Below are positions 28,823-54,841 of a DNA stretch of 64,000 bases, piece after piece. The stretch comes from Massalongia carnosa (taxonomy: Eukaryota). Below the pieces are notes generated by a model. It was not told the origin of the DNA. It worked only from the letters and a program-made list of their open reading frames with translations, and did not search any database. How positions within the stretch are numbered: the stretch's first letter is position 1; every line of letters begins with the position of its first letter. The DNA lies in NCBI GenBank assembly GCA_965645245.1, contig OZ287067.1:186001-250000 (forward strand), written 5' to 3'. The position numbers and the translations under genes are program-made.

Positions 28823-31800
28823 CTAGCCTGATTCTTGATTATCATCTATTTTTGTTAGATCATCTGGTGGTTTGGGTTTCTGTGGATGTTCTCGATGATA
28901 TTGGAGGATTTTGTCCTTTGAATTCTTGAAGTCGGTCCATGGTTGCCAGTAAGGGTTCGCGTTCCATTCATCCCAATTTCCAATGAAGGTTGCTTTGTAC
29001 TGCACGCCGAACTTTCTTGTTTCGCGGCAGTCTATTATTTCGAGGACTTCCCATTCTTCGTGGGCCTCCTCTTCGTCGTTTTCGGTTATGGCTATGGGCG
29101 GTCCAGGCGGTACGACTTGTCCTGGGAATGGGTTGGAAGGTGCGAGATGTAGCTTCCACGGATGAAAGATGGGGGTAAGCCCGACGTTCTTTAACTGATC
29201 CGGGATCTCTAATTCGTATGCTTTATTGTCAATAATTCTTATTATCTTCCATGGTCCTATGTTCTTGAAGCTTAATGATCTGCTGGGTCTTTCTGAAGCA
29301 AAGTGCTTGGCGTTTACATAAACCATGTCCCCGATTTTGTATTCCGGGTGAGGTTGACGGCCTTTGTTTGCGTGTCGTGTTTGTTCTTCCTGAGCCCAGG
29401 CTAATTGATCTCGGAGCCAGGTTCGCATGGCTTCTTGCCGTTCTATGATTTTGTCAGCATGCAGTATCTCTACTTTTCCTTTTCCTTCGTATGTGCCTGG
29501 TGGTTCGATGCCACAGCGTGGGTGGAAGCCATGGTCTGCGAAGAATGGAGTCATTCCCATTGATACATTTACATGATTGTTGGCGGCAAACTCTGCGTCT
29601 GAAAGATAATCCACCCAGTTGTCTTGTGTGTAATTGACGTATGCTCGGAGATACTTTTTCATTACCTTGTTGGCGTTTTCGGTTTGACCGTCTGTTTCGG
29701 GATGATGTGCAGATGAGAATTTGATTTTCACCCCGTATCTTTCGCAAACTCTTTTCCATAAGTGAGCGGTTAGTTGACTACCGCGATCGTTTACTGTTGA
29801 TATAGGAAATCCGTAAGAGGAGAATAATCTCCTGGACATCGCATCCATCAGTTCATCAGTAGAGAGAGAGGTTAGTGGTTCATATAATCGTCTTTTCGTT
29901 AAACGATCTACTATCACTAATATGTGTTGATAGACTCTGTTTCGTCTTCGGCATTCTGGAAGGAATTCGACGAAGTCCAATGACACGTCCATCCATTTTC
30001 TATTTGGAATAGGAAGAGGATTCAGCAGGCCTTGCTTCTTGTCGTTGTATGCTTTTGATCTTCGGCATACGGAGCAGTTAACTGCGTATCTCTTGCAGTG
30101 ATCCTTCATTTCAAACCAGAAATAATTTTCTCTCATTATCTGATACATACTTTTGTATCCCGGATGGCCCTGTAATGGTGGTTCGTGATGCTTTTTCAGT
30201 AAATGTAGCTGCAATGGCTCGTAATCTGGTACGTATAGTCTTCCTTTGACATACAGCTTGTCGTTTTCTAGTTTGAGGTCCCCCATTGCTAGCTTTATTC
30301 CTCTTTTTATGAGGTTCAATGGGAGTTTCCTCACTTCCTTCCTCTTTGCTGCTACTATGTCTTGAACTGTTTCGTCTTTTTCGTAAGCTTCTTCAATTAG
30401 TTCCTCCAAAGTCTTCGTTACTGAGCTCTCGGTCTCGTCGATCACTGATGTAGGTTCTGCGTTGGGTTCCTCCGATCCTGTTGTGTCTTCCTCGATGAAT
30501 TCGCTTTGATTATCTTGATTGTTATCGTCGTCGTCGTCGTCCGCTGTGTTTGCGCAGAACACGACTGCTAACGCTTTTCGTACATCGTCATCTAGTTGAT
30601 GCTCTTGAAGCAGCGTTTGAAACTGATGTTGCTCTCTGATATCTTCGAATCCTTTCGGGAGATCTTGAGAGCGTCGAGTAAGCGTATCCGGTTTCTCTCC
30701 TTGCTTTCCCGGTCGATACATAATCTTGAAATTAAATTCGGAAAGAAATTCGGCCCATCTGGCTTGCCTTCTGTTTAGCTGCTTCGTGGTCATGAAGTGC
30801 TCTAAATTCTTGTGATCGGTGTATACTTTAACAGGTTTATCAGGAGCAGCACTTGCAACCTCGGGGCGCCAGACTTCGAAGCTCTTTACAATAGCGAGGA
30901 GTTCCTTATCATAAATCATATAGTTACACTCGGCAGGGGTCATCTTCTTGGAAAAATAGGCTACCGGTTTCAGTACTCCATCGTGCATTTGAGAGAGTAC
31001 TCCGGCGCTGACGAAATCTGAAGAGTCAGTCTCGACCCATGTTTCCAGGGCCGGATCGTAATGTGCTAAGACGGGAGCGGTGGTGAACGCAATTTTTAAA
31101 TCTTCGAAGGCCTTTTGACAATCTTCAGACCATACGAACGAATTATACTTGGTTCGTTTCTTTCCTGATTTCGTCGTTATTTGTTCGCCCTTTGTTAATT
31201 CTGTTAACGATCTCGTCCGTTGCGAAAATCTCGATATAAATCGTCGATAAAAATTCGCAAAGCCTAAAAATGCTTGCACGTCTTTTACGGAGCCTGGGGT
31301 CTCCCATTTCAGAATCGCCTCGATTTTCTCCGAGTCCATCTTTATTCCATCGGTGGTAACTATTAATCCAAGATACTTTACTTCCGTCACAGAGAATTCG
31401 CATTTGTCTATGTCCACTTGCAGTCCTTTCTCCTTCAATCGAGTTAGAACTTTTAACACTTGTTCGGAATGCTCTTCTTCCTTTTCGCTATAAATTAGGA
31501 CATCGTCCAAGTACGCAGTGCAGAAGACGTCTAAGTATTCTCTGACTGTATCGTTAATGAAGCTCTGAAAGGTTCCCGGAGCGTTGCAGAGACCGAATGG
31601 CATTACCAGATATTCGAACTGACCATATCTGGTATTGAAAGCCGTTAGCCATTCGTGGCCTTCCTTCATTCTCATACGATTGAAAGCGGTAATCACATCC
31701 AGTTTTGTGAACTTCTTGGCTTGTGATAGTTTTCCCAACGTTTCATTTATCAACGGTATTGGGTACCTGTTCTTGATCGTGATGGAGTTTAAGGCTCTAT

Positions 31801-32857
31801 AATCTACGCAAAATCTTAAACCACCCCCTGGTTTTCTAACTAAAAGAACGGGGGCTGCTGCGCTTGACGAACTTGGACGGATGAAGCCTTTTCCCAGATG
31901 CTCGTCGATGTATTTTTTAACCGCTTCCAATTCTTGTTCTGACATGGGTTTATAGTTCCTTACGTACGGAGCTTCTTTTCCCGCTTCGAGATTTATCTGA
32001 TGATCCTCCTTCCGGTGTTCAGGCAGTTCATCCGCCTTGTGCTTCATGAAAACATCTATTACGCTGTGATAAGCTGCTGGGACTCTCTCCAACAACTCCT
32101 CTCGGGTGTATTCCGGTTTTCCCTTCATGAACTTGTCGTAATCTCCTGATGTCACTGCTCCGGTGGTAGTTGCGCAGAAGGCCTTCTTTGTTTCTCGAGG
32201 AATCCATAGATAGCCGTCGTGATCCTTCTTTCTGGCCATTCGAAATAAGTGTTTTGCGTTGACTGGAAGAACTTCGATGTCTTCCTTAGGCTCGATCCTA
32301 TTCTTAACCTTGCTTCCCACAGCGAATTCGGTGCAAGTTATCCCTCGTGTAAGACATCCTTTTTCAAGACAATCTGATGAGTTGAACTTCATCGTTCTCT
32401 CTTTCCAATTGATCATTGGGTTGTGCGTTTGCAGCCATCCATCCCCTAAAATGACTGCATACGCTTCTAGTTTTGCCAAATAACATAAGACTTGCTCTTC
32501 GTGATCTCCGATTTTCACGTCGATCAAGGCGGCCTTCGAGAGGAGCTGTACTACCTCTCCATTTCCCAAAGTAAGTTTCACCTTCTCATCCAATTTGAAG
32601 GTGTTCAATTTGTGTTTACGCACAAAGGATTCGTCAATGAGTTCAGCTTCACTTCCATTATCGATAAGTAAACGGGTTTTAATTCCAGCTATGCTAGTTT
32701 TAAAAACTAAATGCTTGCCCTCGATTTTCTTTTCAGTATCGCGGACAGCACAAGTAGAGACCCTAATCATTTTCGTTTCAGTGTCACCGTTCCCATTAAC
32801 AACCTCCTTGTTTGTAAGCCCTTGATCGCGATTTCGATCAAGGACTAGGCTTTTCCC
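28823..32857 (-). CDS. pol: G3 Pol (PR-RT-RNase H-IN-chromodomain), entered by a probable -1 frameshift near 32855; ORF track start 32770
   Basis: LIDNGSE, YLDDVLIYS, ETDSSD, HHCC, DRGSQL, HPETDGQTE, EWEVLEIID..WQP. Confidence 0.94.
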   Translation of the reverse strand, partial: GKSLVLDRNRDQGLTNKEVVNGNGDTETKMIRVSTCAVRDTEKKIEGKHLVFKTSIAGIKTRLLIDNGSEAELIDESFVRKHKLNTFKLDEKVKLTLGNGEVVQLLSKAALIDVKIGDHEEQVLCYLAKLEAYAVILGDGWLQTHNPMINWKERTMKFNSSDCLEKGCLTRGITCTEFAVGSKVKNRIEPKEDIEVLPVNAKHLFRMARKKDHDGYLWIPRETKKAFCATTTGAVTSGDYDKFMKGKPEYTREELLERVPAAYHSVIDVFMKHKADELPEHRKEDHQINLEAGKEAPYVRNYKPMSEQELEAVKKYIDEHLGKGFIRPSSSSAAAPVLLVRKPGGGLRFCVDYRALNSITIKNRYPIPLINETLGKLSQAKKFTKLDVITAFNRMRMKEGHEWLTAFNTRYGQFEYLVMPFGLCNAPGTFQSFINDTVREYLDVFCTAYLDDVLIYSEKEEEHSEQVLKVLTRLKEKGLQVDIDKCEFSVTEVKYLGLIVTTDGIKMDSEKIEAILKWETPGSVKDVQAFLGFANFYRRFISRFSQRTRSLTELTKGEQITTKSGKKRTKYNSFVWSEDCQKAFEDLKIAFTTAPVLAHYDPALETWVETDSSDFVSAGVLSQMHDGVLKPVAYFSKKMTPAECNYMIYDKELLAIVKSFEVWRPEVASAAPDKPVKVYTDHKNLEHFMTTKQLNRRQARWAEFLSEFNFKIMYRPGKQGEKPDTLTRRSQDLPKGFEDIREQHQFQTLLQEHQLDDDVRKALAVVFCANTADDDDDDNNQDNQSEFIEEDTTGSEEPNAEPTSVIDETESSVTKTLEELIEEAYEKDETVQDIVAAKRKEVRKLPLNLIKRGIKLAMGDLKLENDKLYVKGRLYVPDYEPLQLHLLKKHHEPPLQGHPGYKSMYQIMRENYFWFEMKDHCKRYAVNCSVCRRSKAYNDKKQGLLNPLPIPNRKWMDVSLDFVEFLPECRRRNRVYQHILVIVDRLTKRRLYEPLTSLSTDELMDAMSRRLFSSYGFPISTVNDRGSQLTAHLWKRVCERYGVKIKFSSAHHPETDGQTENANKVMKKYLRAYVNYTQDNWVDYLSDAEFAANNHVNVSMGMTPFFADHGFHPRCGIEPPGTYEGKGKVEILHADKIIERQEAMRTWLRDQLAWAQEEQTRHANKGRQPHPEYKIGDMVYVNAKHFASERPSRSLSFKNIGPWKIIRIIDNKAYELEIPDQLKNVGLTPIFHPWKLHLAPSNPFPGQVVPPGPPIAITENDEEEAHEEWEVLEIIDCRETRKFGVQYKATFIGNWDEWNANPYWQPWTDFKNSKDKILQYHREHPQKPKPPDDLTKIDDNQESG

Positions 32858-34491
32858 GCCTCAGATTCCGCTCCCGAATCTGTTTCTACTGTTCTCATGG
32901 TGCTCAAATTCTTGTCCCTGTATTGAGGACAAATGGTATCGTTTCCTCGATGTCCTGATCCCCTGCATGCCCAGCATCGGCGTTGACGGGAGAGGGACTC
33001 GCGCTCGTCGTCCTTCAGCTTCTTTGGGTTTGGGTCTGGATCATACCAGGTGCCTACCCAACCGGCCGGTTTGAATATCGTTGGCATCAGTTTCGCATTC
33101 GGCCGATCATCAGATTTCTTGGAGCTGGTTTGATTGATGGAGGATGAGGCGGACTTTCCGCCGGAGGACTGGGTTGAGGATTGTCCGCTGGAGAAGTTGC
33201 TTCGTTGGCTGGAATTCTTCGTTGCGGCTGGTTTATCGGGACGAGGAAAGTGGTGCGCCACATCTTTGCGGCGGTCTTCGATTCTTCGTGCTTCGTCAAG
33301 TAAAGGGCGGAAATCAGTAAAGACTGAACCCATAAGAGAGTTGGAGATGCTAGGCTTTAACGTCACGAGGAACTTCTCAATTCGCTCGTCAACGGGAGTT
33401 TTAGCTTTCTGCCATAGCTTGAAGATTCGGTGATAATACTCGCTGACGCTTTCGCCCCCTTTCATGGTGACGGTGAGGAGTTCTTTCTTGGCGTCGCGAC
33501 TCTGGAGGTGAATGCCCATATAGTGCTCTATCTCTTCGAATAAAGCGTCGGCCGATAGTGAGTCTCCCATATCCACTATCCAAGAGTGCATAGCCCCGAA
33601 GATCGGCGCTTCCATTTGAGACAGCGCGTAACCGACCTTTTCGTTCTCATCGGCGTAGAGGGGTGCGTCTGTCTTCAGTTTATTGCGGACGGAGTACGCC
33701 CAAGGACTATACTCCTCCGAGTCCTCACCTTTAAGTGGCTTGCTAGGGTTTATACCACGGGGTCGCCAATTCTGGGGGTTGGTGTTGGTGCTTCGGGTAG
33801 TAACGGTATCTTCTCGTTGATGACGTGGTGTTTCCCGTGTTTCCGCTAACTGGCGGACCAGGGAGTCTATGTCTTTCTGTAATCTCTCTTTTGCTATAGT
33901 CATTGCCTTTAATTCGATATCTCTATGCGATAGTTCTTCTTGCGCGAGAAGGGCCTCTCGTTCGGCATCGTCTTTTTCCGTGATGAGACGTTCATGTACT
34001 TGTTTGTAACGTCTGTTGATCTTTTTGACCTCGCCAAGCTTCTCCAGGTCGCCCTGCAAGGAGATGTATTTGTTGAATAGGGTCTTGTCGTATTCGAGCG
34101 CTCTCGCGAGGAAGTCATACCATCGGGGTCCTTCTTTCTCGTCTCGCAAGATGCTCTGCAATTCCTTCAAATTGTGTGCTGCAACGTGGGACGGATGTTC
34201 CGCGGCTTCCTTCTCGTAATATGGATGATCGGAGACATCGATCTTCTGAAAAAACTTCTTTTCTTTTTCACGTCCTGCTCTTGGGGTTTTTTCCCACGTC
34301 CCCTCCGTGGTTTCTTTAATCTGTTCGTTCTGAAGTAATTCGGAGTCTTCAAACGTTCCCGGCATGCTGCTATCCGAGCGAGACGAATGATGGGAGACGG
34401 AACGAGCACGGGTGTTAAATGCTGGGCCGGTCTGGGCCTCTGCGGGAGGGGCTACGGCCTTTCTCGCCGTCATGGGCGTTTTTGAGCTCAT
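32845..34491 (-). CDS. gag: G3 Gag (548 aa)
   Basis: Homologous to G2 Gag (GPAFNTRARS, YALSQM..PIF, EYYHR.FKLWQ, CWACRGSGH). Confidence 0.92.
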   Translation of the reverse strand: MSSKTPMTARKAVAPPAEAQTGPAFNTRARSVSHHSSRSDSSMPGTFEDSELLQNEQIKETTEGTWEKTPRAGREKEKKFFQKIDVSDHPYYEKEAAEHPSHVAAHNLKELQSILRDEKEGPRWYDFLARALEYDKTLFNKYISLQGDLEKLGEVKKINRRYKQVHERLITEKDDAEREALLAQEELSHRDIELKAMTIAKERLQKDIDSLVRQLAETRETPRHQREDTVTTRSTNTNPQNWRPRGINPSKPLKGEDSEEYSPWAYSVRNKLKTDAPLYADENEKVGYALSQMEAPIFGAMHSWIVDMGDSLSADALFEEIEHYMGIHLQSRDAKKELLTVTMKGGESVSEYYHRIFKLWQKAKTPVDERIEKFLVTLKPSISNSLMGSVFTDFRPLLDEARRIEDRRKDVAHHFPRPDKPAATKNSSQRSNFSSGQSSTQSSGGKSASSSINQTSSKKSDDRPNAKLMPTIFKPAGWVGTWYDPDPNPKKLKDDERESLSRQRRCWACRGSGHRGNDTICPQYRDKNLSTMRTVETDSGAESEAGKA

Positions 34492-35463
34492 GACTGGATT
34501 CTGAAAATGGGATAGCTTGATTCCCTGATTCTAAAAGTTCTGGAAGTTCTGGAATTTGGATCGGTTTGGATTCGCACAAACGATCAGTCTGGAAAGTTAC
34601 TGGAACGGGTTTTCACCCTATCTGGAAGAAAGTTGCTGGAACGGGACCTCGTCCCTACTGGAAGTTCTGGAAGAAAGAATACTAATAGGTAGATAAATTG
34701 TGTAAGGAAGCTGTCGTCGATTCTAATCAACCGCTATTAAACTAAAATTTATCTACAAAAGAAGAAAAGAAACATTGTGCGCGACTCGCTAGAAATATCT
34801 GCACCGAGTGTCGCGCTAGCCTCGCGTGCTCGCGTGCTCCCCCCTTCCATCTCAGCCTTATGTCAGGCTAGGACCCTGACACCAGGCCTCCCATGAGATC
34901 GAGGCTTATCTGAATAGCTTCAGTTGCTGCCTAACAAACTGGTAAGGCTGATTGCTGATGGCTTAGTATTGCTATCCGCCTTATCATGACTAAGCATCCG
35001 GATTATCAGTCACCCGGTCTTCTTAGGTGAGTCATCCCAGGAGCTAGCCCAGTCCTGTATTGCCGCGCTATTACACCTCCCGGGGTTTTACAATTGTACG
35101 CCTAGGGCTTGCCTGCTAAAGTCGCACAATTGCGTCAGATGGCTATCGAATTATTGCGAGCAAGGGGAAATCATACTGCCCTGGGAGTTAATTGGTAACA
35201 GCATTTTTTACATCGTCATCCCGATTTGCAGGCCAAATATAGTCGCATATTGGATCAAGAACGATTATTTGCAGAGAACGAAGAGATTTTAAACATTGGT
35301 TCGAGCTTATTCTTTCCGTCAAACAAAAACACGGAATTCTTGATGAAGCCATCTATAATATAGATAAAAAAGGGTTCATGATTGGGGTAGCCGCTAGTGC
35401 TAAAGTGGTAATATCCAAGCACGAAAAGCAGGCTTTTTCAGCACAATTAGGTAATCGAGAATA

Positions 35464-35547: not shown

Positions 35548-37253
35548 CGAAGGATGACGCTGAAAGTCCTTACCAACGCTAAATATGCAGCTAAAAAAGC
35601 CACTTTACATGGGTATATTTGCATGGATAGATATTTATTAAATATTCAATCCATCGAATAATCGCATGAAGCTATTTAGAATTACTACCTCCATCATCTT
35701 TATCACTCACAGTCATCGCTGTCAGTACTTTCTCGTTTGAGATGAGCGTGATGATATCGAACACGGCGATCTTCTGTATTATACGGTCGTACGACTCCGA
35801 TCTCTCTACCTTCTCTATACTCGTTACCTCCGTCCAACAATATCACATCGTCAACATGTCGCTTTACACGTTCAATCCAGGACTGAATTCTTTTCTGTGT
35901 CAACTCCTCTGTCCAGCACTTTGTCCAGGCCTTTTTAGCCTCAATACGAGTCCGCGGAGCTCCTAAGCGAGTGGTTCTTCGCTTTATCCAGAACCAACAA
36001 GGCTCGATTATGTTCAGATCAGGAGAGTTTCCAGGCCATAACAGACGCATGACGTTGAAATCCATAAAGATCAGATTTTGATGTTTGGATGCGTGACTGA
36101 GGCCTTGTCTTCCTGTACGATAGTGTTTGGTCGATCTATCATGCATTCTTTTGCAAACGGAAGAAGCTTAGGAATTAAGACGAGTTTTTGATAACGATAC
36201 CAGTCCACACCTCCCTTGCCATCTCGAACGACTTTACCGTGTGTTTAATCCCATTTCCAGATAGGTTTTCGACCTCCTGGATTACGTAGCTTCATTCGTC
36301 TCATGCTGGTTTCTAACTCCCAATTCTCTTTAGCTTCTGATTCTAAAGTCTCATTGAGATTATCTAACTCAATTTGAGCCTCTCTTTTTTCTTTTGCAGT
36401 CTCTGTTTTCCAGATATGAAAAGGTCCTTTCTTAACGTACGAAAAACAGCCCCGAAACAAAAACTCGGAGCATCCTTTCCATCTACTTCGAATACACGTT
36501 TTAGCATACATTTCTTTCGAGTTACGCCACTGAAGTCTTCTTCCACGTCTAGAACCCAATATAATGCTTGTTTCGCCAGTCCATATAACGTTCTTCCAAT
36601 CATCAATAGTCCAGTGCTGATATCGCAAACAAAATTGCAGACGAGCCTCTTTCAGGGTCGAATCTAGACCTGGCTTTTTCGTGCTTTTACAGGGGCGAAA
36701 CCCATTCTGTTTAAGCGTACGAAGCATAGTAGTGGAGGAGAGTTTATTATCAAAGCCAATCATAGCTGATGATTTTTCTCTGCTATTTCGATCTTGCACT
36801 ACATTATTCAATATAGCTTGCTCTACATCCGGTGTAACCTTTTTAGGTCGTCCTGAACGAGGTGCATCTTCTATATATTCTACTTTTAAAACAGGAGATA
36901 CAGCTGGATCATATCCACTCTGTCGTGCTTTGATTTTGAGAGCTGAAATCGATCTTGTGGAGACTCCAGTCATTGCTTGCACGATTTTCGCCGCAATTCC
37001 GTGTTCTACAAGCGCTAAAGCCTGTATTCTTTGTGCAATCGTGAGACTATTGCTCGGTGCATTGGGCATGATAATAATAATGATTAAAACCTTCTACTGA
37101 ATATCAGATGTAGTAGTACTATCTTTTTGACGAAGAGAACAGAAGCAATTCGAGATTTTCTAGACTATTTTAGTACTGTATTCCCCTTGTAAGCTAATAA
37201 CCACTAATGCACGTCTCATGTACGCTAGCAAGGACTTTCAGCGTCATCCTTCG
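35548..37253 (-). mobile_element. Tc1-like element E with a disrupted DD34E-type transposase (35703-37069)
   Basis: TIR cgaaggatgacgctgaaagtcctt at both ends, TA flanks (35546-47, 37254-55); WKNVIWTGET and WPGNSPDLNIIE motifs; stop and frameshift. Confidence 0.9.
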
Positions 37254-37426
37254 TACAGTCGACTGCAAAAGGTTGGTCGGGACCCTGAATTTGGGACCAC
37301 ACATCAAATATTTACGCGAAAATGGCAAAATGCCGGCAAAAATCCGAAAACTACCCTCACCGCCTGCATTCCAATAAAGTCGTACTACTGGTCAGTATTG
37401 AAGCGATTTGTAGATTAGTATATTTG

Positions 37427-39206
37427 CAGTACTAGGCCAAAAGTCTGCGGCCCCGCACCCCACTAACATTTCAATCATTCTATTCAACCAATAATCAACA
37501 ACGTCACGATTGCTGAAATGTCTTGAAACTTTACATAATGTCAAGGACTGGGTTAGGGATTGAACTAATGTTCCTAAGACTGGGATTGGGTAATCAAGAT
37601 GTCTTTATTAATGAAGCTATAGCTAGGGGATGGTTTGCTATACAAGACGTCGGACGAGGAGTCAACTATCTACAGGATATGTCCTCTTTTTATACCTGAG
37701 CCAGCCCCTTCTTTCTCATGTTTTACCTTCACCCTAGATGAGAGATTTAGGTGATGGTGGCGGCGATAAGGTGGAGCGATAAGTGGGCCCGTGGATGTGA
37801 TCGTTCTAGCGATAAGAGGGTATAGTGGAGTGAGGAGATTGGTGGAGTGGAGTAAGGGGTTTATTCAGACTCATACCGAGGATGAATCTGAATAGGCTTT
37901 CAGGTGGCTTTTACCTCGATCGCCGCTTGACGGTTCGGTAATCATTAGGTTTTAACTCAAACTTTATTTCATGACACATAATGATTACATACATACTAAA
38001 CAAGAATTCCCCCAAAATTTGATTTTTAATATTTAGTATACCATCCTTTCGACGCTATACACGCTTTTATCCTCCTATTCATGCTCTCTATTAACTTCCT
38101 CATCATTTTCACATCTATCAACGTCCAGGCTTCTTCTAACGCTTTCTAAAGTACCTCACGAACAGTTTCATCACTGCCGCTCACCAAATCTATGTTCGGG
38201 TTGACTTGATAGACGAGCTTTTTGAGCACATACCAAACGTGCTCGATAGGATTTAAATCAGGAGAATAGGGGGCCCAATCGATGACCTCTATGCCGTTCT
38301 CATTGAACCATTCCATCACCTTTTTAGCCTTATGTATAGGTGCGTTATCCTGTATGAAAATGAGGCCCAATTGCCAAATTCCAAGCAGATTATCGTTCAA
38401 TAATTCCATATATGAGTTCGCCGAGTACCCCATCTTCTTCGCAGCAAAATCACGAGCCAATTTGTAAAGATCTGACCTGTCATCTCCCCAAAAAGCTGCC
38501 CAGACCATGACACTGACTCCTTTGCCTTTGAGGACAGGTTGTATCATCTCTTTATTCCATTTTTCTTTCGGCAATCTGAACACCCACTGACGCTGTTTTC
38601 CTTACCCCTTTTCCACCGAGCACTCATCTGACAATATAACTCTTGACCACTGCTCAAAAGTCCACTCACGCCGCAGCAAGCACCAATCCAATCGTTTCTT
38701 GGCCACCTCAGGCGTCAATAAAGGTCGTTTTTTAGCCACCCAGTTGGTTAAACCATACAGTTTGAGTGCCCGATAGATGGTCGTACGACTGCAAGCGAGC
38801 CCCACTTCTAGTTGGATTTGTGCATAAGTGATTCGTGGATTGATTCGTGCATGCTTGATGATATAACGTCGATCGCGTTCTGACAGCACTTCAGGCCGTC
38901 CAGAACGTGATTTAGACACGCCGTCGTTGCGAATTGGTGCTTCTGAATGGTGCTCTGCACGGTCGATTTAGTGAAATTAAGAGTCTTCCCAATCTTGGTC
39001 GGTGTGTGCCCCAACGCCTGGGCCCCAACAATCATACCACGTTGATATGGCGTCAATTCAGTGTTACGAGGCCGATTACCACTTATGGGGGTCAAAGAAG
39101 CACGAAGCATGGTGAAATGATGAGGTGGAAGATGGGGGGTTGATGAGTTGAAAACGCGAAATCACGAAAATCACGGGTTGGGCCGCAGACTTTTGGCACG
39201 GGACTC
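37427..39206 (-). mobile_element. impala/Tc1-like element C nested in the left TIR of D; disrupted DD34E transposase (~38030-39110)
   Basis: Imperfect TIR ..gccaaaagtctgcggccc; flanks TG/TA; ILSDECSVE, FIQDNAPIH-(34)-SPDLNPIE. Confidence 0.88.
37539..37976 (-). repeat. Solo LTR of the G4 family inside C
   Basis: Reverse complement of 47510-47946; TSD CATAA. Confidence 0.95.
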
Positions 39207-39266
39207 TAGATGCCATTCCCCGTCTTTTTTCCCTCCCTCTGCCATTCCCCATTTTTTATCTCAGAT

Positions 39267-41420
39267 ATGAAACTCGTGAACCGAGAGCAAAAAGATCAAA
39301 TTCCGGCCCCCCCCCCCCGGCCGGAAAAGAGCCTTTCAAAGGTAAGAGAATCAAACTGACTTTTGGGAGGGCCGAGAGCCAGAGCCATTGTTGCCGCCGG
39401 CATCGATGAAGCCTCGCCGGAATCGACGTCGGCCCCTCCCAAGCCAAAGCCTCCCCTCAAGTCAAAGCCCCCCTTCAAGCCAAAGGCCCCCCTCAAGCCA
39501 AAGGCCCCTCCCAAGCCAAAGGTCCCTCCCAAGCCAAAGGCGCCTCCCAAGTCAAAGGTCCAGCCTCACCAGTCAAAGACTTTCGAATCGAATTATTATA
39601 GTCCCTTTGTCATTACGGAGGATTCCTCCGACGACTGGACGGATGAAGACGAGAAGCAGAGGTGGCAGGGTCAGTGGAGAAAGGAGAACGCGATGAAAGC
39701 TGTAGATGCCGAAGATGATTCCGAAGATGATGCCGAAGATGATGCCGAAGATCTCAATGTGCCTAGTAACTCGATTGTCAGTAAGAAGTCTAGAAAAGCA
39801 AGAAGAAAGGAACCCTCCCGTTTATCCCCTTCGCCACTGCCTCCGACGGTAATCAAATATCTACTAAATGTGATGTCGTATGAGAAGCACGTCGTTTTCG
39901 AGACGGTGATTCCATACGAAGTCAATTCAACTACGTCGAAAAGATTCTTTTTGAGAAGCTACATCGGGGACATGAGTTTGAAAGCCGAGACGTATGCGAA
40001 TTCCAAAATGTATGCTTGTCATTTTGTCGATATCAAAGCGACCGTGTTATGGAATGGAATCAAACCGCATGAAAGATCATCTCTCATGTTGATCGAATCC
40101 TGGCAGCCCATTGAGGAGGTTCTAATTCATTTAGAAGACAGCAGCATTCGAAAGAAAAGCTTCGCGGTTGATCTTATTTTCAACTTCAGTCGTACCAAAG
40201 ATGGCGTCATTCCTCCCGATGATCCTATTGCTGCTGCCACAGCTGTCGCCACCAAGAAATTGGGAACCGCGACCATGAAGCTGCAAAAAGAGATGGAGGA
40301 ACGAGCCATGTTGCAAGGCATGACGGCCGAAAGAATGTCCGAATTGCAAAGTCTGCATCTCTGTGAAAAACGCGCATGTAGGAATTTCGGACAGTACTGT
40401 TGGAATGATGAGACGAAGAATCAGCAATATCCTCTCAACAGTGCTCATTTCGTGACCTGGAATAAAGCACTAGATGATGGAATTTCAGGCGTTGATTCTC
40501 GAACACCTCCACCGAAGATCAGGGAGAATTTATTCTCCCTGAATAAAGGTAAGAAAAAGACTGAATCATCATCTCCAAAACAGGAAACCTCGTCTCAGGA
40601 AATGCCCTTTGGAGGTGGGCATTCCATTTATCAACATCCCATGTAGCAACACCACTCGTACCAAATCCCCCACTCGACATTTCCCCCCTCGTCATTGGCA
40701 TTCCCCTCGACATTTCCCTCGGCATTCCCCTCGGCATTTCTCCACTCGGCATTTCCCCCCTCGGCATTTTATCCTTCTCAGTATGCTCCTTCTACATTAC
40801 CTGACTCGAGACGAGCCCGTGAGGAAACGCCGTTAGATTGGAGAGATTCGAGATCATCCAGAAGCAGTCGAAGCGTGAGTCGATTTCTCCCTCTCCCCTC
40901 CGTCGCCCGCAGCAGTCCAGTGGAAGAAGATCTGGAAGACTATGTCAGTTGGCTCGTTCAAATGAAGCCTCATTTGAAAGGAGTGCTCACCAACGCCTGC
41001 GATCGATTGATGGAAGGTGGGTACGATCTGATGACCGTTCAATCCTTGAAAGGCATCGAGCATCAGACGTTCTGGCAGGAGCTAGGAATTCCTCCGGGAA
41101 TCGGGATTCAACTGGCGCGAGACGTCAGTAAATTTAGAAGAGAAATATCTTGGCAAATGCCTTTGCAAATGTCTCGACAAATGTCTCGACAGATATCTCA
41201 GCAAATGCCCCCGCCTCCCTCTCGGCGTCAACGCCATTTACCGACATCGCAAATGGCCACTCAGGCGGTCACTCAGGCGGTCACTCGGGTGGATAAGGGG
41301 ATGGAGGATGGGGAGGTGGACGGGGGCGGGGAGGTAGGATCTGAAGTGAGAGATACAATTGAGGAAGATGAGCCGCATAGTCTAGAATAAGATTATGCCG
41401 AAGACGAAGATGAGGATTAG
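39267..41420 (+). pseudogene. Second gene of element D, unknown function; 5' end uncertain
   Basis: ORFs 39363..40646 and 40695..41390 share a frame and are separated by one TAG; a further TAA precedes an acidic tail ending at 41420. Pro/Lys repeats, acidic tract, CEKRACRNFGQYCW..LNSAHFVTW..TPP motif, FPSA repeats, SAM-like WQELGIPPGIGIQL. Confidence 0.7.
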
Positions 41421-41435
41421 ATACTATGTATCTAA

Positions 41436-42471
41436 TCAGATTGAAATGGTGGGATACTGAATGCCAGCCAATCTAAATAAATTTCCCGGGTCTCCCATTC
41501 TCAGATCTTTGACTGCATCCCGAAGAAATTGTCCGAATCCCCCATACTCCTCCGTGTACGAAAGACTCATTTCTCCATTCCGTCGAATCCATGCCTTTAG
41601 CAATGCAAACGACGTTCCAATTGGATTGAAATCTGGAGAATAAGGAGATAGTCGTGCCAAGGTGACGTTGGCTGTCTCGCACATCTGAATAAGGTCCTGA
41701 TTCCAATGAATGCTGGCATTATCTAGTACTAAAACAGATCTAGAACCTCCATTGGCAGTCGTCTGAGGAAGAACCTGATTTCGAACGAAGTCGTTGAAAA
41801 TTTCGGCAGTTATGGAGCCCTGATGCACCTCCCAAGCTATATATCCATCGACGGTAAATGCAGGAAGAATGCTCCATCTCTTTGACCTTTTCAAATCCTG
41901 AATCATGATTGGAGGGACGCCTGCCTGAGCCCATCCGTATCGTCGATCACCTAGTGAGAAAGTCAGAAAAATGACGAAGATGGGATGAAAGATGAGATAG
42001 GAAATAACCGGTTCTTTCGCAAGCTGCACTTTCGTCCAAAAAGATCAATTGCTCTGCAGTCAATTCTCCGAGTCTCTGCATCCATCCATCTCGAAGGCCT
42101 TGATTTCTTTGAGCTGCTTGTTTGATCACCTTCTTTCGATTCCAACCAAGCCTTTTTAGGGCACGACCAACGGTGGTCTCATCTGCAGAGATCTGAAATT
42201 CGTCCCAAATGAACCAGCACATTTCGTCCAGATAGGCAGGCGGACGTTGCTCCAGATATTTAATCTCATGAAATTGACTGAGTTTACGAGGGCGATGTCC
42301 AATTGACAATTGAGGTAGAACCACATCTCCAAAATGAGTCCAATTACGTCTCATTCGTTGAATCTGTTTGATGCCAACACCAGTGACAGATGCAATTGTC
42401 TTATTGCTGTCACCTCGTACAAAACGAAGCGTGATTGTCTCACGAAGGGTCTCACTGAGAGGGGGGGGCAT
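41436..42471 (-). CDS. IS630/Tc1-type transposase of D, 2 exons (42471-42009, 41950-41436), 325 aa; third catalytic E changed to G
   Basis: 58-nt GT..CTGAC..TAG intron at 41951-42008 joins FLDESAACERTG to DRRYGWA in frame; VLDNASIH-(34)-SPDFNPIG. Confidence 0.85.
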
Positions 42472-42926
42472 TTTGGGAAAATGGCAGAGGAGAGAGGGAA
42501 AAAAGACGGGGAATGGCATCTACATATACTAATCTACAAGTCGCTTCAATACTGACCAGTAGTACGACTTCATTGGCATGTAGGCGGTGAGGGTAGTTTT
42601 TCGGATATTTGCCGGTATTTTGCCATTTTCGCGTAAATATTTGATGTGTGGTCCCAAATTCAGGGTCGCGACCAACCTTTTGCAGTCGACTGTATCTGAT
42701 ATTCTAAGCGGCGGAGGAGCAATTTCAATCCCGAAACCCGTCAATTATTTACTGCTCCGCTATCGAACGCAAGCAACAAGTAATTTCCGACTTTTGGATT
42801 GTAGACTTGCAATAATCAGGACTTGAAAACTTCTTTTACCATTATACCGACAAGTAAATCGTAAGCCCCGTACTTATCTCTGGACTTGATTTCACTTAAT
42901 ACTTATCCCGCGATAGCACTCGAAAA

Positions 42927-46247: not shown

Positions 46248-48024
46248 GTGTGGAATACACTTAGTCAGTAACAGCAACATTATTAATACGTAGTGTAACT
46301 GCTAGCTTGTACGCACCCTGGATGAGTAGTAAAAAGGCTGTTTAGTAAAGATTTACACAGGGGGGGGGGGGGGGGGACGGTCGGGGAGTGTCCCTAAGCA
46401 TCTCGGAACATAAACTCAGTAAATCCTTTATATCTCTCTCGTATAGTGGAAGTTACTGGTTCTTGTCTCTCCTGTGCTGTCCTGTCCTCCATATTCGATT
46501 ATTTCCTCGACGGTGTCCCAATACCACACTAGTCTCATCTTATGAAATATAAATTCACTTTGTAGGTATAGTAGCATGATTGTCATTGAAGGTAATTATC
46601 TATGTGGGCTATTTGTCTGCTTTATATAGCAGTCACAAAACAGTCACATCTAGGAGGTCAGACCTTGTCCCCCTGACGGTCAGACTTTGTCTCCCATCTC
46701 TGCTTGTTTAGGCACTTTGCAAGGCACCTCCCGAGGCTCATGATGGATGCCCATGATAATGGTGGCCTCATCATCTAACATCCAACACATCTGTCCAAAT
46801 TACACGTTTCCAATCCTCCATTGTCCAATCTTTGTACTTGATAGCGAATTCTAGGCGGGATTTCTTCATAGCGGGAGTGAGATCTGGCTTCCATATTGGT
46901 TTGACTTTTTTATATCCATTATTTAGTATGTGTTGAATATCCAATTCCTACCAGCACAATGAACTCCTATCAGTACAATGAACATAGCACCTACGGCTGC
47001 CCTAGATGGACAGATCATCTACGAAAACCATAGATGCCGCATTAGGCTTAGTCCCAAGATAAGATAAGATCACCTCGCTTAGAAGGGGGTGACCAGTCAC
47101 GCGCGTGACAGAAACAGGAGGACACCAAAATTTCCCCGCACCACCCACACCTTAGTTTTTTAATTTTTACATCGTACATACACACATTTATCAATTCTTT
47201 ATAAGCAATGGAGCCTGTTCTAGAGTCACGAATCACTATAAATACTGAGCATACCACTCCTACCAAGGCGAAAGGGATTTGGCATTCAAAGCGAGAGGTT
47301 TTCGAGTTTTTCGGTGTGGGACATACTCGAGGTTATGAAATACTCAACGATCAAGAAACTAATCGACGGCATGATCATACAAACAAATCGGAGACTCGTG
47401 GTCAGCCTCGCAAACTGTCAAAGAAGCAGATAGATCGTATGGATGAAATATTGCAAACCTGGCTTGGAGGGAAGATCACTGACCTGGAATCAACTGGGTG
47501 CAGCTGCTGTGTCATGAAATAAAGTTTGAGTTAAAACCTAATGATTACCGAACCGTCAAGCGGCGATCGAGGTAAAAGCCACCTGAAAGCCTATTCAGAT
47601 TCATCCTCGGTATGAGTCTGAATAAACCCCTTACTCCACTCCACCAATCTCCTCACTCCACTATACCCTCTTATCGCTAGAACGATCACATCCACGGGCC
47701 CACTTATCGCTCCACCTTATCACCGCCACCATCACCAAAATCTCTCATCTAGGGTGAAGGTAAAACATGAGAAGAAGGGGCTGGCTCAGGTATAAAAAGA
47801 GGACATATCCTGTAGATAGTTGACTCCTCGTCCGACGTCTTGTATAGCAAACCATCCCCTAGCTATAGCTTCATTAATAAAGACATCTTGATCACCCAAT
47901 CCCAGTCTTAGGAACATTAGTTCAATCCCTAACCCAGTCCTTGACATTACGTCGGACCTGATCATTATAAGTGCCCTCCAAAGCATTTTTCTCCCATCTA
48001 TCCCCTTTACCATAATCCATCGTC

Positions 48025-49182
48025 ATGACTGATCAAATGGATACCGAATCGACTCAAACCGCCGCAGAATATCTTCAAGGACATATCAACGAAAACCCTC
48101 AAGGACTCGTTGATAGCATCGCTCGCATGCAGGCCGAGAATGCGGAACTTCATCGACGAATCGATGCTTTGTCGACTCAGGCTCCTGTCCCCGCTCCCGT
48201 CCCCGCTCCTGCTATCAATCCCACCTTGGACTCTCAGCTGGCTGAGGTGATGAAGATCCTCTTAGCCAAAAAACCCGTCGATATCCGTTCCGAGAAGCTC
48301 CCTGACATCTCCGAATACGATGGTGAGGAAGCCAAATTGGACTCCTGGGAGCAAAGCCTGATCCAACGAATGCATGTTAATCATGATCGTTATCCAACCG
48401 ACGTCGCCAAGATCGCCTATGCGGAGAACCGACTCACCATTGGGAAAAGAGCTCACAACCTCATGAACGCCTATCGATTAGACGGCATCTGCACGCTAAA
48501 GACCTTCTTCGAATGGCGTACCGCTCTTCGTAAGGCTTGCGGTAATCCCTTCGAGCAGGAAGATGCTCGCAAGTATCTTTGCGAGACCCTTAAACAGGGT
48601 ACTCTGAGTTTCGAAGAGTACTATAACCTCTTCGCCCAGAAAAAGGATCGCTCCAAAATGGAGGATGCTTCTCTAATTGATGCCATGAAGTCCAACATCA
48701 ATTATGCCATTCAAGCCGCCGCCGTCCACTATCGAGTCCCCGGAACCAACCTGGAACCAGTCACCTTCGATCAACATGTCGCAATGTGGTTGAATACCGA
48801 TCGGAAAATTCGCCAGATCAAACACCTGGCTCCCAACAACAGGACTACCCCGACATCCACAACCACCTCGTCTCAGCGAAAGGATAAAGCGACCATCACT
48901 CTCGCCGCACCCCTTGCTCGCACACCGGATATCCCTTCCGCACCAGTCCCAATTCCTTCTATCGGAGATCCCATGGACCTGAGCCAGGCTATGGCAGCCG
49001 TCAAGGGTAAATCGCTGAAAACGGAAGGGGTGAGGGATATCTGTGATAAATGGAATCTCTGCCATTATTGCAAGCAAAAACACCCGGGGAAGACAGCCAT
49101 CGACTGTCCTAATAAGAAAACCAGTCTTCGCTCATCAGATACGACCTTCATTTCCGAGCTCGAAGACTCGAAAAAAGCCTAG
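48025..49182 (+). CDS. gag: G4 Gag (385 aa)
   Basis: Open ORF with GDPMDLS and CHYCKQKHPGKTAIDC. Confidence 0.92.
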   Translation: MTDQMDTESTQTAAEYLQGHINENPQGLVDSIARMQAENAELHRRIDALSTQAPVPAPVPAPAINPTLDSQLAEVMKILLAKKPVDIRSEKLPDISEYDGEEAKLDSWEQSLIQRMHVNHDRYPTDVAKIAYAENRLTIGKRAHNLMNAYRLDGICTLKTFFEWRTALRKACGNPFEQEDARKYLCETLKQGTLSFEEYYNLFAQKKDRSKMEDASLIDAMKSNINYAIQAAAVHYRVPGTNLEPVTFDQHVAMWLNTDRKIRQIKHLAPNNRTTPTSTTTSSQRKDKATITLAAPLARTPDIPSAPVPIPSIGDPMDLSQAMAAVKGKSLKTEGVRDICDKWNLCHYCKQKHPGKTAIDCPNKKTSLRSSDTTFISELEDSKKA

Positions 49183-52100
49183 GTCCTGCGCATCGTCGCG
49201 CGCAGGAACCATTTCTCATTTCTTCTTGTCTGCTAGCCAATTCTTTTTCTCCCCCCCTCCGATCAAACACTCGCTTTTCTGCAGCAACCGCTTTGGAGCA
49301 ATTTGAGTCTGAAGAGGCGTTTAGAGATAGCCACTTAGTGGTTTCATGTACTTTACGTCTCGGTAGATCTCGAATTCAAACTCTTAGTTTGATTGACTGT
49401 GGTGCATCCGGCTATGCATTCATTGACAAGAAATTCGCGCAAACTAATCAAATCCCTCTTCATTCTCTGAAATACGCTCGACGCCTCGAAGGTTTTGACG
49501 GTCAACCGGCCCTGACTGGAAACATCACTCATGCGGCCGAAGTAATCATGGATCTAAACGGACACACGGAAGAAATGTTTCTCTTCGTAACTGGATTGAA
49601 AACATACCCCATTGTTCTCGGACACCCGTGGCTGCGTCGGCATCAAGCCCATATCGATTTCAACACCAACTCTCTATCATTGGCGTCTCCTTTCTGCCTC
49701 GCTCACTGCTGTCCTCGTCCGGTCAAAGTACAAGCTCGTACTGAGGAAGAAGTTCTTTCGCCTGCTGAAAGTCAGGAGGTGTGGAAATCCGAGGACATAA
49801 ATCCAGCCTCAATTGAAGCCTCAATTGAAACCTCAACAATCACAATCACGCCCGAAAACGTCGGCCAGGAGACCTCCGTGAAGGAGGAGATGAAAGACGT
49901 CAGTCGCATTGAAAAAGCGATTGAACAAGGCAACCCACCAAAAATTCGATACCGAAGCCCCTCCTCCAAACGAACTTCGGTAGAAAGACGCGCCGCTCAG
50001 CAAAAAACCAAACCCTCAGTCATGGACATCTGCGAATTGTCTCGGACGCAAAGAAAACCACGAGATGTTTAGCCTCTCCTTGAAAGAAATCGATCGCTTC
50101 CTCGGAGAGACCCCAACCGAACCCAAAACCGAAATCCAATCCGCAACCGAATTCAGTCGCCATAGCAGTCTGAATAAACCGAAACCAACCTATCAACCCA
50201 ACCCGCGTCACAGTCCTAGTGAAAAGGAACTTCATCTAGCCCTGTTTCGCATGAACCAAGCCCTGACACTGCAGACATCAGTGACCGCCCAAGAATTAGA
50301 CGAATATCGCAAGCAGAAAAACGTCGATCCAGCCCTCCTCCTTCCCAAGCAATACCACGACCTATTGCACGCCTTTTCCAAAAAAGACTCTGACGTCTTA
50401 GCCGATCATCGACCCTATGACCATGCCATCAAGCTAAAAGAAGGCTTTCAGGCACCCAATCAAGCTCTTTACGGCATGAGCCGTGATGAGATTCAAGAAC
50501 TTCGTCGCTATCTGGATGAGAACCTGGCTAAAGGTTTCATTCGAGCGAGCAAATCGCCCGCCGCGTCCCCGGTTATGTTCGTAAAAAAGCCGGGAGGAGG
50601 ACTTCGCTTTTGCGTGGACTATCGAGGTCTCAATGCAGTCACCGTAAAAAATCGATATCCACTTCCCCTGATTGCTGAAACCCTGCATCGATTAGCCAGG
50701 GCCAAGATATTCACCAAGCTAGATATCATTGCAGCCTTTAATCGCCTTCGAATCAAAGAGGGGGATGAGGAACTCACCGCCTTTCGAACTCGTTTCGGCC
50801 TATTCGAATCCCTGGTCTTGCCTTTCGGTCTGTGCAACGGACCCGCCTCTTTTCAACATTTCATCAACGACATTCTTCGAGAATTTCTTGACGATTTCTG
50901 TACAGCCTATCTCGATGATATCCTTATCTATAGTGAAACCGAAGGCGAACACGAGATCCATGTCAGAAGAGTTCTCAACAAATTGATAGAAAACGGGCTA
51001 CAATGCGACATCACCAAATCCAAATTCCATGTTAAAGAGGTTGCATATCTGGGATTAATCGTAACCACCGAGGGTATCAGAATGGATTCTGCCAAAGTCG
51101 AAACCGTAACCAACTGGCCAACCCCGATCAACATGAAGGATGTTCAAAGCTTTTTGGGATTCGCTAACTTCTATAGAAGATTCATCTATGGCTTCAGTAA
51201 TATAGCCGGTCCACTAACGAATCTAACCAAGAAGGAAGTCGAGTTCAACTGGACTGATCAATGTCAGCAAGCTTTCAATACTCTCAAAAATGCTTTTACC
51301 TCCGAAAAAGTGCTTCTGCATTTCAACCCTGACAAACCCATCATCGTCGAAACTGACGCTTCCGATTATGTCTCCGCTGGTATTCTCTCGCAATATGATG
51401 ATGAAAACGTGCTGCGCCCCATCGCCTACTTCTCCAAAAAACACAATCCGGCCGAATGCAACTACGAGATCTACGACAAAGAGTTAATGGCCATCGTCCG
51501 TTGCTTTGAAGAATGGAGACCCGAGTTGGAAGGCTCTGCTTTTCCCATTAGCGTAATTTCAGACCATAAAAACTTGGAATACTTCGCTTCCACCAAGCAG
51601 CTCAGTCGCAGACAGGCCCGTTGGTCTGAATTCTTGTCTCGTTTTGACTTTAAAATAGTCTATCGACCCGGAAAAGCTGGAGGAAAGCCAGATGCATTAA
51701 CTCGTCGATCAGGAGATCTCCCTAAAGAGGGGGATGAAACCGACGAAAGACAAAAATACCAGCATCAAACCATACTGAAAACTCACAACCTAGATGATAA
51801 AGTTGCAGCAAGCTTCCTCTCCACCATAATGCTAGCCCCTACGTTCATCGAACCCGAGCCCGAGTTCATTGCACCCGATCCCGAGTTCATCGAACCCGAC
51901 CGAGCTGACGAACCCCAGTTGGATCAACCTACCGATCAAGTCGATTCCGATCAAGACCCTCTAGATGTCCCCACTCAACTGTTATGGGAACAGGCTCAAC
52001 TTCGAGATCAATTCGCATCAAAAATCCTAGACGCACTCCATGACAACGTCCGTCATCATCCTAAAATTCAGCTAGCCGAGTGTGAGAATAGAGATGGAGT

Positions 52101-53517: not shown

Positions 53518-54841
53518 ACCAGCATCGCAGGAGCTCAGCCTTCGAAGGGGGAGCTACTGTCATGAAATAAAGTTTGAGTTAAAACCTAATGATTACCGAA
53601 CCGTCAAGCGGCGATCGAGGTAAAAGCCACCTGAAAGCCTATTCAGATTCATCCTCGGTATGAGTCTGAATAAACCCCTTACTCCACTCCACCAATCTCC
53701 TCACTCCACTATACCCTCTTATCGCTAGAACGATCACATCCACGGGCCCACTTATCGCTCCACCTTATCACCGCCACCATCACCAAAATCTCTCATCTAG
53801 GGTGAAGGTAAAACATGAGAAAGAAGGGGCTGGCTCAGGTATAAAAAGAGGACATATCCTGTAGATAGTTGACTCCTCGTCCGACGTATTGTATAGCAAA
53901 CCATCCCCTAGCTATAGCTTCATTAATAAAGACATCTTGATCACCCAATCCCAGTCTTAGGAACATTAGTTCAATCCCTAACCCAGTCCTTGACATGCTG
54001 AGACTTCCTCCGTCTCCTGGCGTACTATACAACGAGCGATGCATGAACGAAACTATCGTAAATGTCTCGCACGCACAAAAACCTACGTCCCGAAAGATTT
54101 GATGATTGCACGAAAGGACTGGGCTTGGAACAAACGAAACACATACTCGTTGAATGATTGGAAAAGAGTTCGCTTTTCCGATGAAGTTCATTTCGGACGA
54201 GGACCTCAACGAAGACTACGCATCATTCGAAAACCTGGCGAGCGTACGTGTCAGGATTGCATTCAGGAACAACATGAGCCTGAAGAGAAGGACAAAAAAC
54301 AGAAACGATATCATTGTTGGGCTGCTGTGGGGTGGAACTTCAAATCAAAGCTGATTTTTTATGAGGTTCCCGGCAATTCGAATGGAAAGATGAGTCAGAT
54401 GGTGTATATTGACTTCGTTCTGGAACCGGTAGTAAAAACATGGCTCGAAACAGACCCGATTTTCGTGTTGGAAGAAGATGGCGATTCAGGACATTGGATC
54501 GGGGAAGGACGAGCATGGGCTAAAATACTACTTCAACTGCCCTCGTTCTCCTGATCTCTCTCCTATCGAAAATTGCTGGCAGGTGTCCAAACAACGGGTA
54601 GGTCGTCAACCTCATTGGGATGATGACACCACAATAGCTGCAATTAAGGCGGGTTGGGTCAGTCTTTCTCAGGAAACGATCAATGAATGGATCGAACCAA
54701 TGCCTAAAAGAATAGATGATGTTTTAGACATGAACGGCAAGATGACTAGATGGTAATTATTTTATAGATGGTAGTAAGTTCAAATTTGATGATATTCGCT
54801 TATTTTGGTGTCCGCCTGTTTCTGTCACGCGCGTGCCAGTA

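Follow-up and report, generated by a model that had tools for sequence, protein, structure and literature searches.

A stretch of 64,000 nucleotides of contig OZ287067.1 (positions 186,001 to 250,000; the whole stretch is called the window) contains, at 37256-42692, what is in all likelihood a decayed copy of a cut-and-paste transposon of the Tc1-like group (IS630/Tc1/mariner, DD34E) with two genes; its host is probably a fungus. In addition to the transposase, the element encodes an accessory protein from a second gene, designated gene 2, which is located in the same tail-to-tail position within the terminal inverted repeats (TIRs) of deeply diverged relatives. Comparison of homologous copies establishes, at the level of sequence, that gene 2 belongs integrally to the transposon lineage, is inherited vertically with it, and is under purifying selection. 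The family is an unusual two-gene form of a known transposon group and carries a new protein family.

The element starts and finishes with CAGTCGACTGCAAAAGG in inverted orientation and has TA at both sides; i.e., TA is followed by CAGTCGACTGCAAAAGG at 37254-37256, and the reverse complement is followed by TA at 42692-42694. The features that define the ends are as follows.

37254..37255, no strand: left TA target-site duplication, from reading of the sequence.
42693..42694, no strand: right TA target-site duplication, from reading of the sequence.
37256..37424, plus strand: outer 169 bp of the left TIR, starting CAGTCGACTG, 95-97% complementary to 42524-42692.
39209..39246, plus strand: inner part of the left TIR, matching 42480-42522.
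42480..42692, minus strand: right TIR, 213 bp and uninterrupted, from the repeat search and blastn.
42476..42518, minus strand: the two inner copies of the motif TGCCATTYYCS in the right TIR (42476-42486 and 42508-42518), candidate protein-binding sites.
39211-39221 and 39240-39250: mirror copies of the same motif; its outer copies are at 37317-37327 and 42621-42631.

The repeat search of the window returned three collinear pairs of inverted-repeat arms, which are 37254-37350/42598-42694 (97 nt, 97% complementary), 37347-37423/42524-42600 (77 nt, 95%), and 39207-39239/42490-42522 (33 nt, 97%). Comparison of the element with the window by blastn gave a 169-nt match with 95.3% identity and a 43-nt match with 93%, the latter extending to 39246/42480. 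The left TIR, in two pieces, therefore measures approximately 207 bp and the right one 213 bp. Each TIR holds three copies of TGCCATTYYCS, with the outer one facing opposite to the two inner ones, and all six matches in the window fall within the TIRs; the number expected by chance is 0.27, a post hoc figure, as the motif was picked after the sequence had been inspected. Without the nested insert described below, the intact form would be approximately 3.65 kb long, with TIRs of ~210 bp starting with CAGT and TA target duplications, and its interior is filled by two convergent genes, one for a transposase of 325 amino acids with one intron and the other for an accessory protein of ~720 amino acids.

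The transposase gene is read on the minus strand.

42009..42471, minus strand: transposase exon 1 with the HTH_33 DNA-binding region, ATG at 42471, from Pfam and alignment.
41951..42008, minus strand: putative transposase intron of 58 nt, GT..AG, from the reading frame and the family consensus at the joint.
41436..41950, minus strand: transposase exon 2 with DDE_3, from Pfam and alignment.

The gene comprises 325 codons and ends with the stop codon at 41438-41436. Exon 2 matches Pfam DDE_3 (PF13358) with an E value of 5e-22 and 78.8 bits (cut-off, 28.6), and exon 1 matches HTH_33 (PF13592) at 6.9e-6 and 26 bits (cut-off, 25), while PF13384 falls under its own cut-off. As read from the alignment, 34 residues lie between the second D and the third catalytic position. 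The DDE_3 domain, this spacing, the TA duplication, the TIRs, and the paired-like HTH are together the features of the Tc1-like DD34E group within IS630/Tc1/mariner, and all of them were found; the catalytic E is present in all 12 aligned relatives and mutated in the window copy, which makes DD34E a property of the family. The exon joint, ERTG|DRRYGW, agrees with the family consensus ERTGDRKYGW, and two relatives (P0078 and P0091) have read-through inserts exactly at the intron site. No joint across the intron (42008-41951) was present in the contigs of four public runs, a result that has no bearing on expression. Intron positions differ between clades: the single intron of the window transposase lies near profile position 158, and the transposases of six metagenome loci (L006, L009, L015, L016, L018, and L026, on the plus strand) are split into three to five open pieces, the breaks falling near profile positions 70, 119, and 243. 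The closest transposase relatives from named sources (P0079, P0080, and P0091) have LNESAA, LILNNARIH, and NLIE in place of LDESAA, LVLDNASIH, and NPIE; their residue make-up is compatible with C-to-T mutation, such as repeat-induced point mutation, in their hosts, and their composition was flagged in tree building.

Gene 2 lies on the plus strand and faces the transposase gene.

39267..41435, plus strand: gene 2, accessory protein, ~720 codons, intronless, from homologous copies.
39413..39579, plus strand: 18-bp tandem repeats, seven copies, coding for basic (K-P-K-x-P-P)n in the N-terminus of gene 2, from the repeat search.
39849..40205, plus strand: gene 2 domain 1, predicted beta-grasp, PB1-like, from the model of P0018 residues 80-194.
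40251..40550, plus strand: gene 2 domain 2, predicted long helix, hairpin, and two helices, with C-x4-C-x7-C-x9-H, from alignment and model.
40911..41144, plus strand: gene 2 domain 3, an SSPV motif and then a predicted SAM/(HhH)2-like five-helix domain with the motif PGIGIQLA, from alignment and model.

The start codon at 39267 is supported by P0022, P0006, and the second subfamily of copies (P0021), which begin the conserved N-terminus MKLR.PR.KR.N.GPP at this position. A short intron after ATG 39267 was considered and rejected, since this part is collinear in the other copies, from which two 1-nt indels set the window apart. In the window, the frame ends with TAG at 41418-41420, and copy P0014 has the same stop; in copy P0003, gene 2 continues to TAA at 41433-41435 and touches the stop of the transposase (41436-41438). 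The gene 2 ATG lies 21 bp inside the inner end of the left TIR (39246), and the transposase ATG (42471) lies 9 bp inside that of the right TIR (42480). The gene also contains tracts of variable length, namely the poly-C run at 39307-39319, the 12-bp acidic repeat at 39704-39752, and the 18-bp KPK repeat at 39413-39579. Between the window and other copies, the difference amounts to 3 bases in the poly-C run and 12 in the acidic repeat; copy P0011 shifts frame within the former.

Most of this layout had been put forward in the first-pass annotation, namely TA-flanked TIRs of ~215 bp, an intron-bearing DD34E transposase on the minus strand, a plus-strand gene of ~700 codons from ATG 39267, both ATGs within ~20 bp of the TIR inner ends, and stops 15 bp apart (41420 and 41436). 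The layout holds at the lengths and distances measured here, and the stop coordinates were correct. Missing from that annotation were the splitting of the left TIR by a nested 1780-bp element and the decay of the copy.

Gene 2 is not restricted to this locus. A word-indexed search, in which 7998 candidates were scored, returned six gene 2 proteins, one of which is the window's own; the five other clusters comprise 25 open reading frame (ORF) fragments, found on ENA contigs that range from 0.23 to 3.8 Mb and have 14 different lengths. These copies form two subfamilies, ~95% and 51-57% identical to the window, and both include long open copies, e.g., three of 584 amino acids and one of 573 amino acids with the N-terminus. 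In copies P0006 and P0022, the TIR is uninterrupted and runs directly into gene 2, with no insert like that at 37427-39206. An exhaustive HMMER search, covering 1.84 billion representatives, yielded 53 proteins at E ≤1e-3, 17 of them at ≤1e-10, with lengths of up to 771 amino acids. Other searches yielded less: a profile search of a 5.8-billion-protein set with the gene 2 alignment returned the query itself alone, the Protein Atlas gave no usable relative, and of the 21 pattern matches from a metagenome scan with the single protein P0053, none was confirmed.

Linkage of the two genes was examined in metagenome loci that had been fetched by the transposase alone (an alignment of six relatives), taking the best 80 loci from 586 confirmed stretches. 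The gene 2 profile matches 14 of these 80, in every case downstream of the transposase and on the opposite strand. Where the transposase scores at least 310 bits against the hidden Markov model, gene 2 is present in eight of nine loci, and the ninth has a downstream flank of 9 bp only. TIRs of 63-144 nt (92-99% complementary) surround both genes in L015, L009, L006, L016, and L026, i.e., in five of the seven loci examined, the other two being short contigs; TA stands beside the CAG terminus in all five (L015, L016, L026, L006, and L009). Both genes are also enclosed by TIRs of 31 and 79 nt (97%) in L025 and L019, out of a further five examined. The seven elements are 2.8-3.5 kb long. In L025 and L019, the profile matches the Cys-His block only, and the ORFs keep the order of a beta-rich domain, the Cys-His block, and the SSP motif with the helical domain. 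These distant two-gene elements (L025:39-3513 and L019:1015-4523) are ~3.5 kb long; L025 is AT-rich by eye, and its accessory gene has an additional Cys-rich N-terminal region and three exons. L025 and L019 suggest an old two-gene layout that was later remodelled.

The compact layout is repeated in these loci. The transposase ATG is located 5-70 bp from the inner end of the left TIR in five loci, the gene 2 ATG 1-29 bp from that of the right TIR in three loci, and the gap from stop to stop is 47-89 bp in four of five loci and 306 bp in L009. Because both ATGs lie within tens of base pairs of the TIR inner ends and leave no other room, each TIR would supply the promoter and the 5' untranslated region for the gene that adjoins it. 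Similarly, the convergent transcripts would overlap at their 3' ends, because the stop codons abut or are ~50-90 bp apart. It is highly improbable that gene 2 derives from a different mobile element, brought into a one-gene Tc1-like element of this genome by insertion or recombination. The region is a transposon nest and the window copy itself holds a nested insertion, as such an origin would lead one to expect; however, gene 2 has neither TIRs nor a target duplication of its own, its stop abuts that of the transposase, and the two-gene unit lies within one TIR pair in seven unrelated metagenome loci.

The two genes have also diverged together. On a tree of 106 transposases, the gene 2 label requires 2 changes compared with a mean of 8.4 after shuffling, and none of 500 shuffles was as low; one of the 11 labelled rows, P0077, was labelled through its inferred pairing with the gene 2 homologue P0036. 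Between pairs of loci, identity in one gene tracks that in the other (Mantel r = 0.69, a value reached in 6 of 5000 permutations), and r is 0.76 without the inferred pair P0077/P0036 (38 of 5000 permutations as high). Gene 2 diverges faster, with identities of 17-44% compared with 33-62% for the transposase. The proportion of nonsynonymous differences (pN) in gene 2 is 0.39-0.50, while that of synonymous differences (pS) is saturated at 0.68-0.77, and pN is below pS in six of six pairs; for the transposase, pN is 0.22-0.30 in ten of ten pairs.

These data bear on whether gene 2 is captured host DNA, carried as a passenger with no role for the element. Its faster evolution relative to the transposase would fit such cargo, as would the related lineages that have no gene 2. 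We nevertheless consider it very unlikely, since position, orientation, and domain order are kept across elements whose transposases are 33-45% identical, gene 2 co-diverges with the transposase with pN below pS in every pair, diverged loci keep long open exons, and none of the 53 homologues is linked to a known cellular family. Both random cargo and a local chimera are rejected on linkage, enclosure by the TIRs, co-divergence, selection, and compact layout taken together. The first-pass annotation had likewise taken gene 2 to be integral and not random cargo, a claim borne out by its multiple copies, its place beside the TIR in P0006 and P0022, and its co-divergence; that gene 2 would prove to be single-copy and unlinked to transposases, named there as a refutation, is contradicted by the copies lying tail to tail with a transposase in shared TIRs. 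The checks proposed there gave tail-to-tail co-occurrence in the metagenome loci and correlated divergence of the two genes, as described above, and the selection on gene 2 is evident from pN and pS, although as a bound.

Several observations weigh against the reading of the element as a two-component system with an integral accessory gene. In the same broad transposase clade, six loci with at least 1.4 kb of downstream sequence (L002, L007, L011, L013, L023, and L033) have no gene 2, which is therefore not indispensable to the transposase lineage. In L007 and L013, the TIRs lie directly around the transposase alone, giving single-gene elements of 1.4 kb, and in the distant half of the tree gene 2 occurs in none of six loci with at least 1.5 kb of downstream flank. 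Family members without gene 2 had been named in the first-pass annotation as a second refutation; among the close transposases this did not occur (gene 2 in eight of nine), but it did in L007 and L013. Gene 2 is thus a property of certain clades and not of every relative, and the data support a two-gene transposon lineage with single-gene sister lineages, as judged from the sequences compared. The remaining points concern the evidence itself. The link between P0036 and P0077 is only that both come from an ENA contig of 4066 bp. With synonymous sites saturated, dN/dS is a bounded and not a measured value. The TIR promoters, the intron, and the overlapping transcripts are all inferred, and so is the function of the accessory protein, which is predicted from middling fold matches (Z 5-7) and an HhH-like motif. 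Finally, the host is called probably fungal on account of the named transposase relatives, the short introns, and the neighboring transposons.

The predicted gene 2 protein has a basic N-terminus followed by acidic runs, and further acidic runs are located at its end. The homologues share the order of a basic N-terminus, a conserved core, a C..C..C..H block, a Pro/Tyr-rich linker, SSPV, and a C-terminal helical domain. No Pfam family was found in the window pieces at E ≤0.01, and four intact relatives gave chance-level Pfam rows alone at E ≤1. A model of P0018 was built by AlphaFold2 from a 54-row alignment and contains three well-predicted parts, with block values of the predicted local distance difference test (pLDDT) mostly above 90 and disorder between them. 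Fold matches are at Z 5-7, which is under the tool's caution line of 8. Domain 1 (residues 80-194) most closely resembles PB1 (4mjs_A; VIA Z = 7.2, root mean square deviation [rmsd] = 3.0, 85 of 88 residues aligned), followed by streptokinase, MAP2K5, and NBR1 PB1 at Z 6.2-6.6, and has no Pfam PB1 match. In the Foldseek search with the whole model, weak beta-grasp rows with superantigens were returned at E 3e-3 or worse, which we take as an indication of fold class alone.

Domain 2 is the most conserved part of the gene 2 family and, when modelled alone from the window sequence, has a pLDDT of 91.5. No convincing PDB match was found for it (best VIA Z of 4.7 among 48,161 chains; best Foldseek E of 1.9), and the PDB sequence-profile search with gene 2 gave one row at E 0.041, which was disregarded. 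Domain 3 (P0018 residues 421-501) resembles the tankyrase SAM domain (5jti_A; Z = 6.2, rmsd = 2.5, 60 residues aligned) and, further down, RAD51-family N-terminal domains (Z 5.1-5.7) and 8gj9_B (Z 5.2), with no Pfam match. In the alignment of homologues, domain 3 conserves PGIGxxxA, which we take to be a helix-hairpin-helix (HhH) signature.

On the basis of these models, the accessory protein would most likely be a nuclear, self-associating DNA- or chromatin-binding cofactor. Binding to DNA or chromatin would occur via the basic tail, the Cys-His domain, and the HhH-like domain, and self-association via the PB1-like or SAM-like modules. We tentatively propose that such a cofactor helps the transposase to assemble on, or to pair, the long TIRs with their repeated motifs, or to choose targets. 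A more far-reaching scheme, which we regard as possible but doubtful, is that a widespread, old, and probably fungal Tc1-like lineage is a true two-component system, in which transposition depends on the accessory protein, with its PB1-like module, a Cys3-His domain not seen before, and an HhH/SAM-like DNA-binding domain, multimerizing on the TIR motifs, the TIRs act as twin inward promoters, and the convergent transcripts bring about antisense self-regulation.

Alternatively, gene 2 may be conserved and element-encoded but act against host genome defence or regulate the element, e.g., as an anti-silencing factor, a copy-number regulator or inhibitor, or a chromatin tether. Its modelled domains match protein-protein or polymerizing modules (PB1-like and SAM-like) but no known transposase cofactor; single-gene relatives exist, so that transposase chemistry is plausibly independent of gene 2; and the convergent, abutting genes imply an antisense overlap that a regulator could use. 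On the other hand, gene 2 bears no likeness to a known silencing suppressor, having no Pfam family and no PDB sequence match below E 0.04. We hold a role in defence or regulation to be rather unlikely, although the present evidence does not separate it from the cofactor model.

PIF/Harbinger transposons encode two proteins, of which the second, a DNA-binding one, is required together with the transposase. The element described here likewise encodes two proteins, and PIF/Harbinger serves as the working model for gene 2, as a functional analogy only. However, the transposase here is of the DDE_3 and not the PIF type, the target duplication is TA and not 3 bp, and the second protein is not Myb/SANT-like and has no Pfam family. 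Another likeness is to the inverted repeat/direct repeat (IR/DR) elements of the Sleeping Beauty type, in which TIRs of ~200 bp contain repeats that bind the transposase of a one-gene element. Here, the TIRs are of similar length and contain internal repeats, with the three TGCCATTYYCS copies of each as candidate sites, whereas the outer motif copy is inverted relative to the inner two and the element has two genes.

The closest comparison is with the Tc1-like DD34E elements, which share the DDE_3 domain, the 34-residue D-E spacing, the N-terminal HTH, the TA duplication, TIRs starting from CAGT, and cut-and-paste movement; classic members have the transposase only, whereas here a second conserved gene of ~480-770 codons lies convergently within the TIRs. 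Members used for comparison are Tc1, Minos, and the fungal impala (in part from PMC7325037). According to that source, the ciliate TBE/Tec elements are the known multi-ORF members of the superfamily, with a DD34E transposase and further ORFs in long TIRs; they have three ORFs, including a zinc-finger/kinase protein, an ORF of unknown function, or a site-specific recombinase, and one ORF is on the complementary strand (PMC7325037). As far as that description goes, the likeness lies in a DD34E transposase accompanied within long TIRs by further coding sequence, part of it on the complementary strand, and the difference in the hosts, which are ciliate germlines, and in the number of ORFs, which is two in the present element; moreover, gene 2 matched no Pfam family of recombinases, kinases, or classical zinc fingers. 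A fungal survey mentions accessory domains and, in the passages searched, no two-gene Tc1 element (PMC5751038). In the full-text literature searched, which lies apart from Repbase, Dfam, and supplementary tables, no description of such a two-gene Tc1-like element was found.

Tc1/mariner elements are the usual example of transposons for which their own transposase suffices, which accounts for their spread across kingdoms and their use as gene-transfer tools. That a second gene has been kept through deep divergence suggests that the lineage has a further need or gains a benefit, e.g., in synapsis of the TIRs, in targeting to the nucleus or chromatin, or in evasion of defence, and the two-component reading, if true, would break the textbook view of Tc1/mariner as self-sufficient one-protein machines. 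Gene 2 also defines a new protein family that includes one domain without a structural match, and annotation pipelines would call it a host "hypothetical protein." In addition, the sister lineages, with one gene and with two, lend themselves naturally to comparison.

The window copy itself is dead and cannot move by itself, owing to the loss of the catalytic E, a 9-bp deletion in the transposase, four breaks in gene 2, and the nested insertion that splits the left TIR. The third catalytic residue of the window transposase is G (NPIG; GGA, with C at 41617), while all 12 aligned relatives have NPIE. In exon 1, a 9-bp deletion follows 42261, and the three residues that are restored there are present in 11 of 12 aligned relatives. 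Gene 2 has lost its frame twice, by -1 after 39273 and by +1 at 39361, and is interrupted by TAG at 40644 and TAA at 41388. At these sites the window was compared with the contigs of the four public runs. The contigs have T at 41617 (GAA, E), T at 40646 (TAT, compared with TAG in the window), and C at 41390 (TAC, compared with TAA). They also have an additional T after 39273 and nine more bases after 42261, and lack one base at 39361. Wherever they cover the decay sites they differ from the window, and the protein copies agree with them. Differences in which the window has A/T and the contig G/C outnumber the reverse by approximately 2:1.

The insertion in the left TIR consists of two further elements.

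37427..39206, minus strand: nested 1780-bp Tc1-like element splitting the left TIR, outside the two-gene element proper, from Pfam PF01498, PF13358, and HTH_SB.
37533..37978, minus strand: solo long terminal repeat (LTR) of 446 bp within the nested element, 99% identical to 47508-47952 and 53558-53996 by blastn.

The nested element has short degenerate inverted ends of its own, is flanked by tg/TA, and carries a transposase in three broken ORF pieces (PF01498, 2.3e-18; PF13358, 1.5e-14). The segments at 47508-47952 and 53558-53996 are regarded as LTRs because both flank Ty3/chromovirus-like pol ORFs (48016-53517), and 37533-37978 is therefore a solo LTR, which places an LTR in a Tc1-like element in a two-gene element as a three-level nest. 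The joint 37532->37976, at the site of the solo LTR, is present in all four public runs. The nested Tc1-like family has a summed contig depth several-fold above that of the two-gene element in these runs, a depth that is not taken as copy number, and a 592-bp deletion derivative of it (joint 38583->39176) is likewise present in all four.

The whole window (1-64000) is a transposon nest, and no ordinary host gene was recognized among its 15 long ORFs that were scanned. Ty3-like pol ORFs are located at 14251-21934 (plus), 28823-34530 (minus), and 48016-53517 (plus), and Ty1/copia-like ORFs at 57532-61183 (minus) and from 63027 to the end (plus). Other remnants of Tc1-like transposases are located at 36245-37093 on the minus strand and 54885-55895 on the plus strand.

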